Shown here one piece after another: positions 3,109 to 62,534 of a DNA stretch of 64,000 nt. Every line of letters starts with the position of its first letter. The stretch's first letter is position 1. The notes beneath the pieces are model-generated. The model made no database searches and was not told the DNA's origin. It was given only the letters and a program-made list of their open reading frames with translations. This DNA comes from Escherichia coli. Lineage in GTDB: Bacteria; Pseudomonadota; Gammaproteobacteria; Enterobacterales; Enterobacteriaceae. A program made the translations under genes and the position numbers. The DNA is taken from the NCBI RefSeq assembly GCF_002854065.1, contig NZ_CP024147.1, one strand, 5' to 3'.

Positions 3109-3498
3109 ATGCTGGGTTTAAAACAGGTTCACCATATTGCGATTATTGCGTCGGATTATGCGGTGAGCAAAGCTTTCTACTGCGATATTCTTGGTTTCAC
3201 GCTGCAAAGCGAAGTCTATCGCGAAGCGCGCGACTCGTGGAAAGGGGATTTGGCGCTTAATGGGCAATATGTGATTGAGCTTTTCTCATTTCCGTTCCCG
3301 CCGGAGCGCCCCAGCCGACCGGAAGCTTGCGGCCTGCGTCATCTGGCTTTTAGCGTTGATGATATCGATGCGGCAGTGGCGCACCTTGAAAGCCATAACG
3401 TGAAGTGTGAAGCCATCCGTGTCGATCCATACACGCAAAAACGCTTCACCTTCTTTAACGATCCGGACGGGCTGCCGTTGGAACTGTATGAGCAGTAA
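3109..3498 (+). CDS. yaeR: glyoxalase/VOC-family protein YaeR
   Basis: ORF with RBS aaaggagacgtt before ATG at 3109; 129 aa MLGLKQVHHIAI…. Confidence 0.85.
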   Translation: MLGLKQVHHIAIIASDYAVSKAFYCDILGFTLQSEVYREARDSWKGDLALNGQYVIELFSFPFPPERPSRPEACGLRHLAFSVDDIDAAVAHLESHNVKCEAIRVDPYTQKRFTFFNDPDGLPLELYEQ

Positions 3499-3562
3499 GG
3501 CTTGTCATTGCCGCATTTGCCCGGTAACGTGCCGGGCATTGCTACTGTAAAATCGCACCATC

Positions 3563-4858
3563 ATGACACTCACGCTCAATAGACAACTTCTCACCTCACG
3601 CCAGATTCTGGTGGCCTTTAGCGGCGGGCTTGACTCCACCGTTCTGCTGCATCAGTTGGTGCAGTGGCGGACGGAAAATCCGGGTGTCGCTCTGCGCGCT
3701 ATTCATGTGCATCACGGTTTAAGTGCCAATGCCGATGCCTGGGTTACGCATTGCGAAAACGTCTGCCAACAGTGGCAGGTGCCGCTGGTGGTCGAACGCG
3801 TACAACTTGCGCAAGAGGGGCTGGGGATTGAGGCCCAGGCGCGACAGGTGCGTTATCAGGCATTTGCCCGCACCTTGTTGCCCGGTGAAGTGCTGGTCAC
3901 CGCGCAACATCTCGACGATCAATGTGAAACTTTTCTGCTGGCGCTAAAACGCGGTAGCGGCCCTGCCGGGCTTTCGGCTATGGCGGAAGTTTCGGAGTTT
4001 GCCGGAACACGGCTTATCCGCCCGTTGCTTGCCCGCACGCGGGGGGAACTGGAGCAGTGGGCATTGGCGCATGGTTTACGCTGGATTGAAGACGAAAGTA
4101 ATCAGGACGACTCATACGATCGTAACTTTCTGCGCCTGCGCGTAGTGCCGTTATTGCAGCAGCGTTGGCCGCATTTTGCCGAAACAACGGCCCGCAGCGC
4201 CGCACTTTGTGCTGAACAAGAGAGCCTGCTGGATGAACTGCTGGCAGATGATTTAGCACACTGTCAATCGCCGCAGGGGACGCTGCAGATTGTGCCAATG
4301 CTGGCGATGAGTGATGCCCGCCGCGCGGCGATTATCCGCCGCTGGCTGGCAGGGCAGAATGCACCGATGCCTTCCCGCGACGCGTTGGTGAGGATCTGGC
4401 AGGAAGTGGCGCTGGCGCGGGAAGATGCCTCCCCCTGTTTACGTTTGGGCGCGTTTGAAATCCGACGCTATCAGTCGCAACTGTGGTGGATTAAATCCGT
4501 CACCGGGCAAAGCGAAAACATTGTGCCGTGGCAGACGTGGCTTCAACCGCTGGAATTACCGGCGGGGCTGGGAAGTGTACAGCTTAATGCGGGAGGCGAT
4601 ATTCGCCCTCCGCGTGCAGACGAAGCGGTCAGCGTGCGTTTCAAAGCGCCAGGATTGCTGCATATTGTCGGGCGTAACGGCGGACGTAAGCTAAAGAAAA
4701 TCTGGCAAGAGCTGGGCGTGCCGCCGTGGCTACGTGACACCACGCCACTGCTGTTTTATGGCGAAACGCTGATTGCGGCGGCAGGGGTATTTGTGACGCA
4801 AGAAGGTGTGGCTGAAGGTGAGAATGGCATAAGTTTTGTCTGGCAGCGAAACGCTTAG
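3563..4858 (+). CDS. tilS: tRNA(Ile)-lysidine synthetase
   Basis: 431-aa ORF with PP-loop motif SGGLDS near N-terminus. Confidence 0.92.
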
Positions 4859-28459: not shown

Positions 28460-28467
28460 ATATTCAG

Positions 28468-28505
28468 AAAGCCCGAATCAGTAATGATTCGGGCTTTCGT
28501 CGTTT
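28468..28505 (+). terminator. terminator hairpin after aspV
   Basis: aaagcccgaatcagtaatgattcgggcttt followed by T-rich tract. Confidence 0.7.
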
Positions 28506-57675: not shown

Positions 57676-57933
57676 ATGAATAACATACAAATAAGAAACT
57701 ATCAGCCTGGCGATTTTCAGCAACTATGCGCTATTTTCATTAGAGCGGTTATGATGACCGCCAGTCAGCATTATTCACCACAACAAATTGCCGCCTGGGC
57801 GCAGATTGACGAATCTCGCTGGAAGGAGAAACTCGCGAAATCACAAGTGCGGGTTGCAGTCATTAATGCACAACCGGTTGGTTTTATTTCCCGCATTGAA
57901 CATTATATCGATATGTTATTTGTTGACCCTGAA
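57676..57933 (+). pseudogene. yafP: GNAT-family acetyltransferase YafP, 5' part (first 86 codons) interrupted by IS1
   Basis: ORF terminates just inside IS1; remaining 64 codons resume in frame after the element. Confidence 0.88.
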
Positions 57934-57988
57934 GGTGATGCTGCCAACTTACTGATTTAGTGTATGATGGTGTTTTTGAGGTGCTCCA

Positions 57989-58264
57989 GTGGCTTCTGTT
58001 TCTATCAGCTGTCCCTCCTGTTCAGCTACTGACGGGGTGGTGCGTAACGGCAAAAGCACTGCCGGACATCAGCGCTATCTCTGCTCTCACTGCCGTAAAA
58101 CATGGCAACTGCAGTTCACTTACACCGCTTCTCAACCCGGTACGCACCAGAAAATCATTGATATGGCCATGAATGGCGTTGGATGCCGGGCAACTGCCCG
58201 CATTATGGGCGTTGGCCTCAACACGATTTTACGTCACTTAAAAAACTCAGGCCGCAGTCGGTAA
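57989..58264 (+). CDS. insA: IS1 InsA
   Basis: [43 protein letters not shown]…. Confidence 0.92.
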
Positions 58265-58534
58265 CCTCGCGCATACAGCCGGGCAGTGACGTCATCGTCT
58301 GCGCGGAAATGGACGAACAGTGGGGCTATGTCGGGGCTAAATCGCGCCAGCGCTGGCTGTTTTACGCGTATGACAGTCTCCGGAAGACGGTTGTTGCGCA
58401 CGTATTCGGTGAACGCACTATGGCGACGCTGGGGCGTCTTATGAGCCTGCTGTCACCCTTTGACGTGGTGATATGGATGACGGATGGCTGGCCGCTGTAT
58501 GAATCCCGCCTGAAGGGAAAGCTGCACGTAATCA

Positions 58535-59818
<1,284 letters not shown>

Positions 59819-59962
59819 CCACTACATAACCTGAATCTGAGGCAGCACCTGGCACGGCTGGGACGGAAGTCGCTGTCGTTCTCAAAATCGGTGGAGCTGC
59901 ATGACAAAGTCATCGGGCATTATCTGAACATAAAACACTATCAATAAGTTGGAGTCATTACC

Positions 59963-60166
59963 GACCCTGAATACACCCGCCGTGGGGTTGCCAGTGCTTT
60001 GTTAAAACCTTGGATTAAGTCTGAATCCGAACTTACGGTGGACGCCAGCATAACCGCAAAACCCTTTTTTGAACGTTATGGTTTTCAGACAGTTAAGCAG
60101 CAGCGCGTTGAATGCCGGGGAGCGTGGTTTACTAATTTTTCTATGCGATATAAACCGCAACATTAA
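59963..60166 (+). pseudogene. yafP: yafP 3' part (64 codons) downstream of IS1
   Basis: Frame continues from 57933 once IS1 and one copy of the 9-bp duplication are removed. Confidence 0.85.
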
Positions 60167-60380
60167 ATCCAGCTTGCAAGGAAAATAACGCCCGCCTGGT
60201 ATGTGCGCGTTTTCTTATTCCACAAACTGCAAGGAGGTAAATCATGACAAATCCTTTATCAATGACTCTTTGCAGACCTTTCCAGGATTAATTCTTTTTT
60301 TCTTGCCCTGGATTCGTCTGCCATTTCCTGATTTTTATATTTATATACTCTAAATAATTCGAGTTGCAGGAAGGCGACAA

Positions 60381-60412
60381 GCGAGTGAATCCCCAGTCAC
60401 TTACATAAGTAA
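60381..60412. repeat. perfect 14-bp-arm palindrome ccccagtcactta-cat-aagtaagtgactgggg
   Basis: Read directly; lies about 60 bp upstream of the ykfJ'-prfH ORF. Confidence 0.8.
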
Positions 60413-60471
60413 GTGACTGGGGTGAACGAACGCAGTCGCAGTTCATGCAACTTGAAGTATGACGAGTATAA

Positions 60472-61020
60472 ATGGAATGGTACATGGGCAAATATATTCG
60501 TCCCTTATCCGATGCGGTATTTACCATCGCATCTGATGACCTGTGGATCGAGAGTTTAGCGATCCAACAATTACACACCACGGCAAATTTACCCAACATG
60601 CAGCGCGTAGTGGGGATGCCAGATTTACACACCCCGGACGCGGCTACCCGATTGGCGCAGCGTTCTTCTCTGTTGGTCGTTTTTACCCGGCAAGACGTCG
60701 CGGTAACGGTGCTGGAAACCGAAGCCGGGCGTTATCCTGACACGCTGCGTTCGTCGGGGCCGGGCGGTCAACATGTCAATAAAACCGACTCGGCGGTACG
60801 CGCCACGCATCTGGCATCCGGTATTAGCGTGAAGGTTCAGTCAGAGCGCAGCCAGCATGCTAACAAACGGCTGGCGCGATTGCTGATTGCCTGGAAGCTG
60901 GGGCAGCAGCAACAGGAAAATAGCGCGGCGCTGAAATCGCAGCGGCGAATGTTCCATCACCAGATTGAACGTGGCAACCCGCGACGGACATTTACAGGGA
61001 TGGCTTTTATCGAAGGATAA
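60472..61020 (+). pseudogene. prfH: fusion remnant: RtcB-like N-terminus (ykfJ) joined to release-factor homolog PrfH
   Basis: N-terminal …[11 protein letters not shown]… is an RtcB-type motif; C-terminal part has the release-factor motif [16 protein letters not shown]. Confidence 0.75.
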
Positions 61021-61076
61021 TGAAGGATGAAACTGCCGGAAGGTGATTGAACGCCATCCGGCAGCAAATCAAATAA

Positions 61077-62534
61077 TTACTTCGTCGGAATTTCTTTCAG
61101 CAGTTCAGTCAGCAGTGTCCAGTAATGACCTACGCTTTCGATGTGAACTTGCTCATCCGGAGAGTGTGGACCGGTGATAGTTGGCCCGATAGAAACCATG
61201 TCCATTTCCGGATACGGTTTTTTGAACAGACCACATTCCAGGCCCGCGTGGATAATCTGGATGTTCGGCGTCTTGTTGAACAGGCGCTGATAGGTTTCAC
61301 GTACCAGATGCATCACCGGAGAATTAGCGTCCGGCTGCCAGCCAGGATATGCGCCTTTCGCTTCGGTTTTCGCGCCAGCCAGTTTACCCAGCGAATCCAG
61401 CATGCTCACCACGTAGTCTTTACCGCTGTCGATCAGAGAACGGATCAGGCAGTGAATTTCTACGTTATTGTCAGTCATGGTCACCACACCGACGTTCAGG
61501 GAGGTTTCGACCACACCTTTTGCCACGTCGGAATTGCGGATCACACCGTTCGGGGTGGCGTTCAGCAGACGAATAAAGGTATCGCGAGATTTCGCAATCA
61601 GGGCAGCTTTATCGTTCGCTACAGAGTCCAGCAACAAGGCCAGATTTTTCTCTTTCTCTGCCAGCTCGTTTTTCAGGATCTCCTGATAGGTATTCACCAG
61701 AGATTTCAGGGCGTCGACTTTATCAGCTGCGACAGCAATGGTCGCAAAGGCTTCACGCGGGATGGCGTTACGCAGTGTGCCGCCGTTGAAATCAATAAGA
61801 CGCAGATCCAGTTCTTCTGCATGACCCGCCAGGAAGCGCACCAGCAGTTTGTTGGCATTACCCAGGCCAACGTGGATTTCACCGCCGGAGTGACCGCCTT
61901 TCAGACCTTTTAAGGTTAACTTGAAGGTTTCAAAACCAGCTGGAACCGCTTCACGATCTAAATGCAGGTTGGAGGTGAAGTCGATACCCCCCGCGCAACC
62001 CATGTAGATTTCACCTTCTTCTTCGGAGTCGGTGTTAATCAGAATATCAGCCTGCAACCAGTTGCTCTGTAAGCCAAAAGCACCGTCCATACCGGCTTCT
62101 TCGGTCATGGTTAGCAGCACTTCCAGCGGACCGTGAACCACGTTTTCGTCAGCCAGAACCGCCAGTGCAGAGGCCATACCAATGCCGTTATCCGCACCCA
62201 GCGTGGTGCCGCGCGCTTTAACCCATTCGCCATCAATATAAGGCTGGATAGGATCTTTCGTGAAGTCATGCACGGTGTCGTTATTTTTCTGCGGCACCAT
62301 ATCGAGGTGGGCCTGCAAGACGACCGGTTTACGATTTTCCATACCTGCTGTAGCAGGTTTACGAATCAGGATATTACCTACCTGATCGCGTTCGACATGG
62401 AAACCTTTCTCTTTTGCCCAACCAACAATGTATTCAGCGAGTTGCTCTTCATGATAGGACGGGTGAGGAATAGAACAGATTTTGGCAAAAATATCCCACA
62501 GCGGCTGTGGAGATAATTGAGACAGTTCAGACAC
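61077..62534 (-). CDS. pepD: cytosol nonspecific dipeptidase (aminoacyl-histidine dipeptidase)
   Basis: 485-aa M20-family ORF MSELSQLSPQPLWDIFAKICSIPHPSYHEE…. Confidence 0.95.
   Translation of the reverse strand: MSELSQLSPQPLWDIFAKICSIPHPSYHEEQLAEYIVGWAKEKGFHVERDQVGNILIRKPATAGMENRKPVVLQAHLDMVPQKNNDTVHDFTKDPIQPYIDGEWVKARGTTLGADNGIGMASALAVLADENVVHGPLEVLLTMTEEAGMDGAFGLQSNWLQADILINTDSEEEGEIYMGCAGGIDFTSNLHLDREAVPAGFETFKLTLKGLKGGHSGGEIHVGLGNANKLLVRFLAGHAEELDLRLIDFNGGTLRNAIPREAFATIAVAADKVDALKSLVNTYQEILKNELAEKEKNLALLLDSVANDKAALIAKSRDTFIRLLNATPNGVIRNSDVAKGVVETSLNVGVVTMTDNNVEIHCLIRSLIDSGKDYVVSMLDSLGKLAGAKTEAKGAYPGWQPDANSPVMHLVRETYQRLFNKTPNIQIIHAGLECGLFKKPYPEMDMVSIGPTITGPHSPDEQVHIESVGHYWTLLTELLKEIPTK

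Follow-up and report, generated by a model that had tools for sequence, protein, structure and literature searches.

The rtcB2–prfH remnant between yafP and pepD of Escherichia coli, its palindrome and its upstream leader

Near the end of a 64,000-nucleotide stretch of Escherichia coli DNA (NCBI RefSeq assembly GCF_002854065.1, contig NZ_CP024147.1; the whole stretch is hereafter called the window), a single open reading frame (ORF; 60472-61020, + strand, 182 aa) begins like an RtcB protein, ends like a release factor and is preceded by a perfect palindrome. This arrangement raises the question of whether the frame is a native fusion or what is left of two genes, and whether the palindrome belongs to their control. 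The original prediction, made from the sequence alone, took the frame as the outcome of a deletion between ykfJ (rtcB2) and prfH, and the palindrome as a possible operator or RNA hairpin of the ancestral operon. The explanation that we put forward, and that we consider very probable as a whole, is that the frame is a decaying rtcB2–prfH pseudogene, that the palindrome is the core of a repeat known as ERIC (enterobacterial repetitive intergenic consensus) or IRU (intergenic repeat unit), and that the ancestral regulatory element is a short leader located further upstream.

The end of the window corresponds to the dinB–yafNOP / rtcB2–prfH / pepD–gpt region of E. coli, and the part studied here is the interval between yafP and pepD. 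Intact loci (strains S19-141, 204446, BH100 and GF4-3) carry rtcB2 (1140 bp) and prfH (615 bp) as separate genes with a 4-bp overlap, and the RtcB2–PrfH module rescues and religates ribosomes cut by colicin E3 (PMC9304027, PMC9223846, PMC13166195). In the window, the synteny from yafP/dinB to pepD is kept and the rtcB2/prfH gene junction is deleted. E. coli CUWW06 shares 99.7-100% identity with the window over about 7 kb, and there the Prokaryotic Genome Annotation Pipeline (PGAP) places, in this order, a split gene of the Gcn5-related N-acetyltransferase (GNAT) family (yafP) containing an IS1, an RtcB-family pseudogene, described as 'frameshifted' and without its C-terminus, a release-factor-like pseudogene, and pepD. 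In E. coli PapRG-06-5 (locus L100, 775-983), the PGAP note on the RtcB-family pseudogene carries an annotation specific to ArmZ of Pseudomonas aeruginosa, which is spreading to E. coli rtcB2 fragments.

The fused reading frame and its lesions

The ORF contains the motif …VGMPDLH… followed by …SGPGGQ…, and the reading of its start as RtcB-like and of the following part as release-factor-like was borne out by the translation and by matches to NCBIfam profiles. With the native ATG at 60484 taken as the first codon, residues 1-50 correspond to positions 1-50 of the 379 of profile NF007153 (RtcB family; E 1.4e-17), with a score of 63.7 bits that lies far below the curated cutoff of 407 for full-length RtcB2 (NF007153 / TIGR03073), the RNA ligase that accompanies PrfH. 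Residues 86-175 match positions 111-200 of the 200 of TIGR03072 (release_prfH; E 2.9e-43), and the score of 147.7 bits is again lower than the curated cutoff for full-length PrfH (166.65). A Pfam search of the ORF gave the RF-1 domain (E 2.2e-23) and did not detect the RtcB domain (PF01139), which spans residues 99-372 of intact RtcB2, a stretch that is deleted as a whole in the window. The chimera keeps 49 of the 379 residues of RtcB2 (13%), none of them within that stretch, and 110 of the 204 residues of PrfH (54%). The latter comprise the GGQ domain, with its motif (Q122), and the C-terminus; residues 1-31 and 54-111 are absent, and with them most of the PrfH-specific N-terminal half.

The lesions were mapped by BLAST and alignment of the window onto intact rtcB2-prfH loci, to which the fragments are 94-97% identical at the DNA level; all segments described below lie on the + strand. 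The translation-start region of rtcB2 (60474-60486) consists of a GGAATGG resembling a Shine-Dalgarno (SD) sequence (60474-60480) and of the native ATG (60484-60486), at whose residue the NF007153 profile starts, while the listed ORF is opened by another ATG in the same frame, upstream at 60472, which is not conserved in Citrobacter. Codons 1-49 of rtcB2 (60484-60630; MGKYIRP…VGMPDLH) are read in their native frame, according to both the DNA alignment to intact rtcB2 and NF007153. Directly after codon 49, at about 60627-60632, the alignment to intact loci reveals a duplication of AC (ACAC to ACACAC), corresponding to a +2 frameshift. The translation shows that codons 50-68 (60631-60686) are out of frame in the ORF (a +1-frame ORF is listed at 60543-60740), so that about 20 codons are rtcB2 DNA translated in the wrong frame. 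The junction of a deletion of about 1020 bp follows at 60687-60692, within a 6-bp imperfect microhomology (CCGGCA vs. CCGACA); the sequence from rtcB2 codon 70 to prfH codon 31 is lost, and BLAST mapping leaves positions 3157-4176 of an intact locus (L001) without counterpart. Codons 34-53 of prfH, placed by mapping to the intact gene (60693-60753), run into the junction of a second, in-frame deletion of 174 bp (60738-60753), which is bounded by the direct repeats GACACGCTGCGTTCG (DTLRS) and GAGACGTTGCGTTCG (ETLRS) and removes PrfH residues 54-111. The frame then proceeds through prfH codons 117-204 with the GGQ motif (60754-61020), recognized by Pfam RF-1 and TIGR03072, up to the stop codon TAA at 61018-61020.

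The junction of the 1020-bp deletion is the same in O157, K-12, STEC409/BL21-type strains and the window, and a deletion of about 1000 nt has been published for K-12 MG1655 and W3110 and for O157:H7 Sakai and EDL933 (Baranov et al., 2006; PMC1586002). The 174-bp deletion is absent from K-12 and O157, in which the rtcB2 and prfH fragments are out of frame and annotated as separate pseudogenes. In fact, the 1020-bp deletion alone puts the prfH frame at +1 with respect to rtcB2, and this is the reason why K-12 has two separate pseudogenes. The +2 shift of the AC duplication brings rtcB2 codons 1-49 into the prfH frame and leaves codons 50-68 out of it. The proposed deletion between ykfJ and prfH therefore accounts for a remnant of both genes, but it leaves their frames unfused, and two further lesions are needed to obtain the ORF of the window.

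The frequency of each allele was determined by means of diagnostic sequence queries against 5426 complete E. coli genomes. About half of these (2711, as counted with a chimeric query) retain rtcB2 across the deletion point. A 44-mer spanning the K-12/O157 junction was found in 1305 genomes, which is an underestimate because polymorphism breaks the 28-nt seed, and the count from the chimeric query is more reliable. The 174-bp deletion junction (38-mer) is present in 32 genomes, the AC duplication (diagnostic 41-mer) in 11, and a copy of the 127-bp ERIC repeat that lies upstream of the ORF, at >=99% identity to that of the window, in 3 records. Single strains occupy intermediate positions: FDAARGOS_943 and SWYHX138 have both deletions and no AC duplication, and PapRG-06-5 has all three lesions together with an ERIC core that still corresponds to the consensus (GAG). 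This nested allele series is the pattern of stepwise neutral decay at a dead locus, and the order of the lesions follows from it, because each later one is rarer (32, 11, 3).

The deletion of about 1020 bp at a CCGRCA microhomology, common to K-12 and O157, came first; the in-frame deletion of 174 bp between direct repeats of 12-16 bp in prfH was the second step, and the AC duplication, shifting the rtcB2 start into the prfH frame, the third. At the level of sequence, the alignments show that the locus is a multiply lesioned rtcB2-prfH remnant, and that its 182-codon ORF is an accidental chimera of three nested lesions, neither a simple deletion product nor a native architecture. The chimeric protein is presumably non-functional.

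Directly 5' of the 174-bp deletion junction, within prfH codons 34-53, 7-8 substitutions cluster in about 30 bp (60716-60735) and turn ETETG(H/R)YSD into ETEAGRYPD. The patch is present in every carrier of the 174-bp deletion examined and in no other allele, and represents either the import of a divergent allele or a complex template switch.

The palindrome as the core of an ERIC repeat

The two arms of the palindrome (60391-60404, CCCCAGTCACTTAC, and 60409-60422, GTAAGTGACTGGGG) are 14 nt each and 100% complementary, as had been described, and the loop between them consists of 4 nt (ATAA) and not of 3. From its end, the distance is 50 bp to the ATG that opens the ORF and 62 bp to the native one of rtcB2; position 60381, at which the original prediction began, is the start of the ERIC core and not that of the ORF. 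Such a structure is not expected by chance: the analytic expectation for a perfect hairpin with 14-nt arms and a loop of 3-8 nt is about 0.0014 per 64 kb, and for 10-nt arms 9 hairpins were observed as compared to a mean of 0.15 in shuffled sequences.

The sole other perfect hairpin with 14-nt arms in the window (GAAAGCCCGAATCA-GTAA-TGATTCGGGCTTTC, 28467-28498) immediately follows the 3' end of a tRNA gene (…GGTTCGAGTCCCGTCCGTTCCGCCA), for which it most likely serves as terminator.

The palindrome occupies the centre (60391-60422) of a full-length ERIC/IRU repeat (60344-60470), a 127-bp imperfect palindrome of the MITE class (miniature inverted-repeat transposable element), whose outer arms (60344-60372 and 60442-60470, 29 nt) are 79% complementary. 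The repeat is located between the leader hairpins described below and the ribosome-binding site of rtcB2, and ends 14 bp before the rtcB2 start codon. Its predicted RNA fold has an energy of -65.5 kcal/mol (z -11.3). The 127-bp element was found in 5425 of the 5426 genomes, where the number of places per genome has a median of 10 (range 2-17). Its core is the sequence on which the standard primers of ERIC-PCR were based. Of these primers (sequences from PMC6066780), ERIC2 (AAGTAAGTGACTGGGGTGAGCG) matches window positions 60407-60428 at 21 of 22 nt, as it does in the O157 orthologue, and the reverse complement of ERIC1R (GTGAATCCCCAGGAGCTTACAT) matches 60381-60402 at 19 of 22 nt, as compared to 22 of 22 in O157. 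ERIC has been described as a MITE of about 127 bp with TA-flanked ends, an imperfect palindrome with short variants that bear internal deletions (PMC3184786). The ends of the window element read TACTC…GAGTA with TA on either side, and the sequence of the empty site is …TTCATAAATGG; filled and empty alleles differ in their 5' flank, which blurs the TA duplication. The element agrees with ERIC/IRU in its length, palindromic form, copy number and intergenic position, and on this basis the palindrome is shown to be the core of a strain-variable repeat of this family. These repeats were reportedly described by Sharples and Lloyd in 1990 and by Hulton and co-workers in 1991, and revisited by Wilson and Sharp in 2006.

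A search of the window with the 44-nt ERIC consensus core, allowing up to 3 mismatches, gave no match, because the window copy has 4 (three from the change of GAG to TCA and one from the change of GAGCG to GAACG); a half-core search gave exactly one copy. In Rfam, no family reached its gathering score in the region, and mir-3116, Ysr49 and STnc350 appeared at noise level. RF02818, named "Vibrio RNA AS5", aligned over all of its positions (1-129 of 129) with window positions 60343-60466 (E 3.8e-9, 48.3 bits as compared to a gathering score of 96); this family is probably an ERIC-like repeat and not a dedicated antisense RNA.

The state of the repeat varies between strains. The site is empty in BH100, which has an intact operon. 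A short ERIC, which lacks exactly the central 72 bp and hence the palindrome, is present in S19-141 and 204446 (intact) and in STEC409 and SWYHX138 (deleted), and a full one in K-12, O157, GF4-3 and the window. The palindrome core is therefore missing from three of the four aligned intact-operon loci of E. coli (BH100, S19-141 and 204446). In a systematic draw from the ranking of the chimeric query, in which each row stands for about 180 records, rows with intact rtcB2 had an empty site in 8 cases and a short ERIC in 6, and the full ERIC was seen only in the top hit (GF4-3); among rows with deleted rtcB2, none had an empty site, 6 had the short ERIC and 8 the full one. Since a full ERIC and intact rtcB2 and prfH occur together in GF4-3, the repeat neither caused nor requires the deletion. 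Outside E. coli, no ERIC was found upstream of rtcB2 at the 13 loci examined, which came from Citrobacter, Superficieibacter, Klebsiella, Salmonella, K. aerogenes, Kosakonia, Enterobacter, Cronobacter, Pragia, Pseudomonas, Massilia, Paucibacter and Pseudoalteromonas, nor at a second Pseudomonas locus.

The central 72-bp gap of the short ERIC has identical boundaries in two backgrounds with different flanks (L001, 2880-2950, and L006, 1880-1950), and these boundaries lie between the near-repeats AGTTGCAG and AGTCGCAG. This observation suggests either recurrent excision of the palindromic centre or recombination.

The perfection of the core is a separate matter. In all other orthologous full copies (O157, K-12, GF4-3, PapRG-06-5 and FDAARGOS_943), the left arm reads CCCCAG-GAG-CTTAC, which is the ERIC consensus (GGAGC) and makes the core a quasi-palindrome with a 3×3 internal mismatch. 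In the window, in CUWW06 and in XJ34/XJ6-3, it reads CCCCAG-TCA-CTTAC (GTCAC), and this TCA is exactly complementary to TGA of the right arm. Pairing within the element is further increased by a second lineage-specific change, A to T (GTTCATG), and the two changes together take the predicted fold energy of the repeat from -57.6 to -65.5 kcal/mol. The comparison with the orthologous copies and with the consensus shows that the perfect core is derived (GAG to TCA), and it appears to be the youngest of the window changes in the series formed by core and ORF. Adjacent substitutions that perfect a hairpin are a classic signature of intra-strand template switching at quasi-palindromes. This kind of mutation is said to follow a model proposed by Ripley, and its hotspots in E. 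coli have reportedly been studied by the Lovett laboratory. We consider it fairly probable that the TCA arose in this way, by template switching within the hairpin during replication.

A second ERIC with the same perfect 14-nt-arm core is found between ybhI and ybhJ in other E. coli (L096, L097 and L098, 1150-1295), where it is carried by about 600 of the 5426 genomes; there, core perfection is recurrent or long-standing. A copy of this kind might have donated the TCA core to the rtcB2 locus by ectopic short-patch gene conversion. The ybhI-ybhJ repeat shares with the window not only the core but also an identical left half, and a conversion tract confined to this half would leave the TCA change alone. 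The right half of the window copy, however, keeps its locus-specific variants (GAACG and GTCGCAGT), and the second window-specific change, A to T in GTTCATG, raises pairing within the element as well. Moreover, the 601 genomes with a perfect core have it at no more than one place each, and, since no genome has two such copies, the lineage of the window allele has no resident donor. Conversion is thus rather unlikely, and template switching within the hairpin is the origin that we prefer.

The leader upstream of rtcB2 and the state of the locus

The 177 bp between yafP and the ERIC repeat are about 81% conserved in other genera and adjoin rtcB2 directly where the repeat is absent. They contain a leader (60231-60291, + strand) made up of a strong SD sequence (AAGGAGG, 60231-60237) and a 15-codon ORF (60244-60291; MTNPLSMTLCRPFQD), which is a homologue of PA5471.1 of P. 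aeruginosa. The latter is a 13-residue leader peptide that senses ribosome stalling and de-attenuates armZ–PA5470(prfH) (Morita et al., 2009, as reviewed in PMC3516279, PMC12057347 and PMC13041342); in our comparison, the P. aeruginosa leader ORF (MIQFSTLCRLRLA) lies at -254 nt from armZ, and has Q3 and F4, in agreement with the published peptide. At every locus examined, rtcB2 is preceded by a leader ORF of 13-19 codons that has a strong SD. In ten enteric genera it always has 15 codons, without indels and with codons 2-8 unconserved, and it is identical in 12 of 12 E. coli loci, all pseudogene alleles included. The K-12 RefSeq entry does not annotate this ORF.

The ORF overlaps a hairpin region (60272-60328, + strand) in which GCAGAC (60272-60277) pairs with GTCTGC (60316-60321) around an inner CCAGG/CCTGG helix. 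RNAalifold returned this helix as a consensus, and minimum-free-energy folds agree with it. In the main helix, most enterics have an A-U pair, Klebsiella and P. aeruginosa a G·U pair, and Pragia, Pseudomonas PDM18 and Pseudoalteromonas a G-C pair; the variants are GCAGAC/GUCUGC, GCAGGC/GCCUGC and GCAGGUC/GACCUGC. The helix motif of Pseudoalteromonas falls in another reading frame, an argument for conservation of the RNA and not of the peptide. At 60321-60328, CCATTTCC (in RNA, CCAUUUCC) is complementary to the SD-like GGAATGG of rtcB2, and the two vary together: CCA-UU/CU/UA-UCC occurs with GGAAUGG, and CCA-CA/UA/AU-UCC with GGAUUGG. In the predicted folds, the region that follows the helix pairs with the rtcB2 SD, and the ERIC repeat sits in the loop of this anti-SD/SD helix, folding on itself and leaving the architecture of the leader unchanged. 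Alternative pairings of the 1:2, 2:3 and 3:4 type can also be drawn.

A covariance model built from the enteric leaders found sequences of Pseudomonas, Massilia and Pseudoalteromonas directly upstream of rtcB2. A contig scan with PrfH matched at least 600 stretches. Of the 80 loci kept from it, most had 28-43% identity to PrfH, many of them along the GGQ half alone; 7 of these loci counted as rtcB2-prfH, and further diversity was gathered by protein search followed by contig look-up. The model had no match in the 73 other loci of the PrfH scan (L015-L087).

A putative promoter of the leader and of rtcB2-prfH (60174-60202, + strand) is formed by a -35 TTGCAA, a 17-nt spacer and a -10 TGGTAT, with hexamer positions conserved across three genera. 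At the -10-like hexamer (60197-60202), the window and 7 of 8 deleted alleles have TGGTAT, and TAGTAT is found in FDAARGOS_943 and in 4 of 4 strains with an intact operon. This change could reflect either promoter decay or hitch-hiking.

Altogether, the true ancestral regulatory element of the locus appears to be the leader ORF with its hairpins (60231-60328), which in E. coli would act on rtcB2. According to the model, the ribosome-binding site of rtcB2 would be sequestered by the predicted pairing between CCAUUUCC and GGAAUGG, and the leader may still give stalling-inducible expression, probably by unmasking that site. The ERIC repeat would have been tolerated because of its insertion into the loop of the sequestering helix, where it folds on itself. 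Such a leader would switch the repair module on by the very ribosome damage that the module repairs, and translation stress would still induce the remnant in the window. In K-12, where the ERIC is full and the 1020-bp deletion is present, ykfJ has been reported to be inducible by 4-azaleucine, and an ERIC that folds on itself without disturbing the leader is consistent with this induction. Whether a stalling leader of the PA5471.1 type is the ancestral control of rtcB2-prfH repair operons across Gamma- and Betaproteobacteria is, in our judgement, evenly balanced. A 2025 review describes the PA5471.1 mechanism as apparently unique to MexXY. The enterobacterial rtcB2-prfH leader is not mentioned in the PrfH and RtcB2 papers searched, a set that does not include the primary paper on PA5471.1 from 2009.

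Several observations count against the explanation given here. The GGQ domain of the chimera and the leader in front of it are both intact, and the 4-azaleucine induction of K-12 ykfJ may be taken as a hint of function. The promoter was drawn from conserved hexamers, and a promoter/terminator scan of 60100-61100 called neither a promoter nor a relevant terminator. With the 10 enteric leaders, RNAalifold gave one compensatory pair, the sequences being too similar, and the covariation in distant taxa was noted by eye. Template switching and short-patch conversion from another ERIC are indistinguishable by sequence. Finally, Rfam holds no ERIC family, and the sole RNA-family signal is the sub-threshold match to Vibrio AS5.

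The first of these observations is best considered together with the possibility that the chimera has acquired a new function, as a free-standing GGQ-domain hydrolase similar to ArfB, induced by stalling and expressed from the intact leader. The GGQ domain and the C-terminus are complete, the frame has been restored by the AC duplication, the leader ORF is the same in all pseudogene alleles, and the K-12 gene is reported to respond to 4-azaleucine. However, about 20 residues of the product would come from out-of-frame rtcB2, most of the N-terminal half of PrfH is gone (residues 1-31 and 54-111), and the match to ArfB is confined to 20 residues around GGQ. Most deleted alleles are also altered in the -10-like hexamer, the stepwise lesions, rarer at each step (32, 11 and 3 genomes), have the pattern of neutral decay, and remnants of the K-12 type give no protection from colicin E3. 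As reported in the RtcB2-PrfH papers, the truncated operon does not protect from this colicin, and the function is lost in the K-12-derived BW25113. A functional chimera is therefore very unlikely.

Even less can be said for the palindrome as an operator or RNA hairpin of the ancestral operon, a reading that we consider highly improbable. The palindrome does lie within the operon's 5' leader, 62 bp ahead of the native start of rtcB2, and its fold is very stable, but it is not conserved upstream of rtcB homologues, being absent from the intact operons of BH100, S19-141 and 204446 and from the 13 non-E. coli loci. It is part of a repeat that occurs at about 10 unrelated sites per genome, such as the ybhI/ybhJ interval, and at the rtcB2 locus it is perfect in only 3 of the 5426 genomes. 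That the RtcB-N/PrfH-C architecture is a native single protein is scarcely conceivable: PF01139 and PF00472 do occur together in two database proteins (P0004 and P0008), but every intact locus has two overlapping genes, of 379 and about 204 codons with a 4-bp overlap. P0004 and P0008 were rejected as native fusions; they come from short contigs and correspond to frameshift read-through of the RtcB2 C-terminus into prfH.

As regards the neighbouring features, the C-terminal fragment of yafP, a GNAT acetyltransferase and the last gene of the dinB-yafNOP cluster, lies at 59963-60166 on the + strand (Pfam Acetyltransf_10, E 3e-7); the annotation of the 100%-identical locus of CUWW06 gives it as a GNAT pseudogene. 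It is preceded by the IS1 that interrupts yafP (57934-59962, + strand), whose terminal repeats were located together with a 9-bp target duplication (GACCCTGAA, at 57925-57933 and 59963-59971). Nested in this IS1 is an IS3-family element of about 1.26 kb (about 58570-59825), with a 3-bp duplication (TAA) and a transposase recognized by the NCBIfam IS3 profile (E 2.4e-89). CUWW06 has the IS1 in yafP and lacks the nested element. In the order given by the nested allele frequencies, the three lesions of the ORF are followed by the perfection of the palindrome, the insertion of IS1 into yafP and, lastly, that of the IS3-family element. Downstream, pepD (61077-62534, - strand) is the conserved neighbour, as indicated by the ORF list and by the annotation of related loci.

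The pseudogene pair and the ERIC repeat are both already known, and the allele of the window is a rare variant of no evident consequence; to this extent, the ykfJ/prfH pair and the repeat have been discovered again. The locus nonetheless offers an ordered series of decay, which includes a clean natural case of a quasi-palindrome turned perfect, and it shows that strong palindromes in enterobacterial intergenic DNA should be compared with ERIC and similar repeats before a regulatory reading is given to them. The most novel open question concerns the conserved leader and not the palindrome. The leader suggests a testable mechanism of induction for the repair operon, and it links the literature on RtcB2-PrfH repair with that on the ArmZ/PA5471.1 antibiotic response, which are barely cross-cited in the papers searched.

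Comparison with known systems

The closest counterparts of the fused frame are the K-12 pseudogenes ykfJ (b0235) and prfH (b0236), which occupy the same yafP–pepD locus and have the same deletion of about 1020 bp with the same junction. Unlike the window, K-12 has neither the 174-bp prfH deletion nor the AC duplication, and its fragments are out of frame; its ERIC core also differs, being a quasi-palindrome (GAG) with an extra C to G change. With respect to the functional RtcB2-PrfH module of ATCC 25922, the fragments of the window are orthologous, with 94-97% DNA identity to the intact genes and Q122 of the GGQ motif conserved, and what is left amounts to 13% of RtcB2 and 54% of PrfH.

As an ERIC/IRU, the window copy shares with the other members of the family the length of 127 bp, the imperfect palindrome, the intergenic position, the multiple copies, the polymorphism among strains and a core that matches the primers. 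It differs in its perfect central palindrome, found at the rtcB2 locus in 3 of the 5426 genomes. As in known template-switch mutations at quasi-palindromes, a clustered multi-base change has made one arm the exact complement of the other; for the window core this mechanism is the one that we infer, with ectopic conversion as the alternative.

The comparison that bears on the leader is with the PA5471.1 attenuator upstream of armZ (PA5471) and PA5470, which likewise has a short leader ORF with a strong SD upstream of an rtcB2 homologue. The E. coli ORF has 15 codons and lies 112-240 nt from rtcB2, while that of P. aeruginosa has 13 codons and lies about 250 nt away. Unlike at PA5471.1, no canonical intrinsic terminator was evident in E. 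coli in the scan, and the modelled pairing suggests that attenuation in E. coli would be translational rather than transcriptional. E. coli RtcB2 is not known to be an anti-repressor. The two leaders have in common CAAAGGAGGUU, CUUUGCAGRC (…LCR…), GYCUGCC and AUGGAUUGG-N3-AUGGGCAA.

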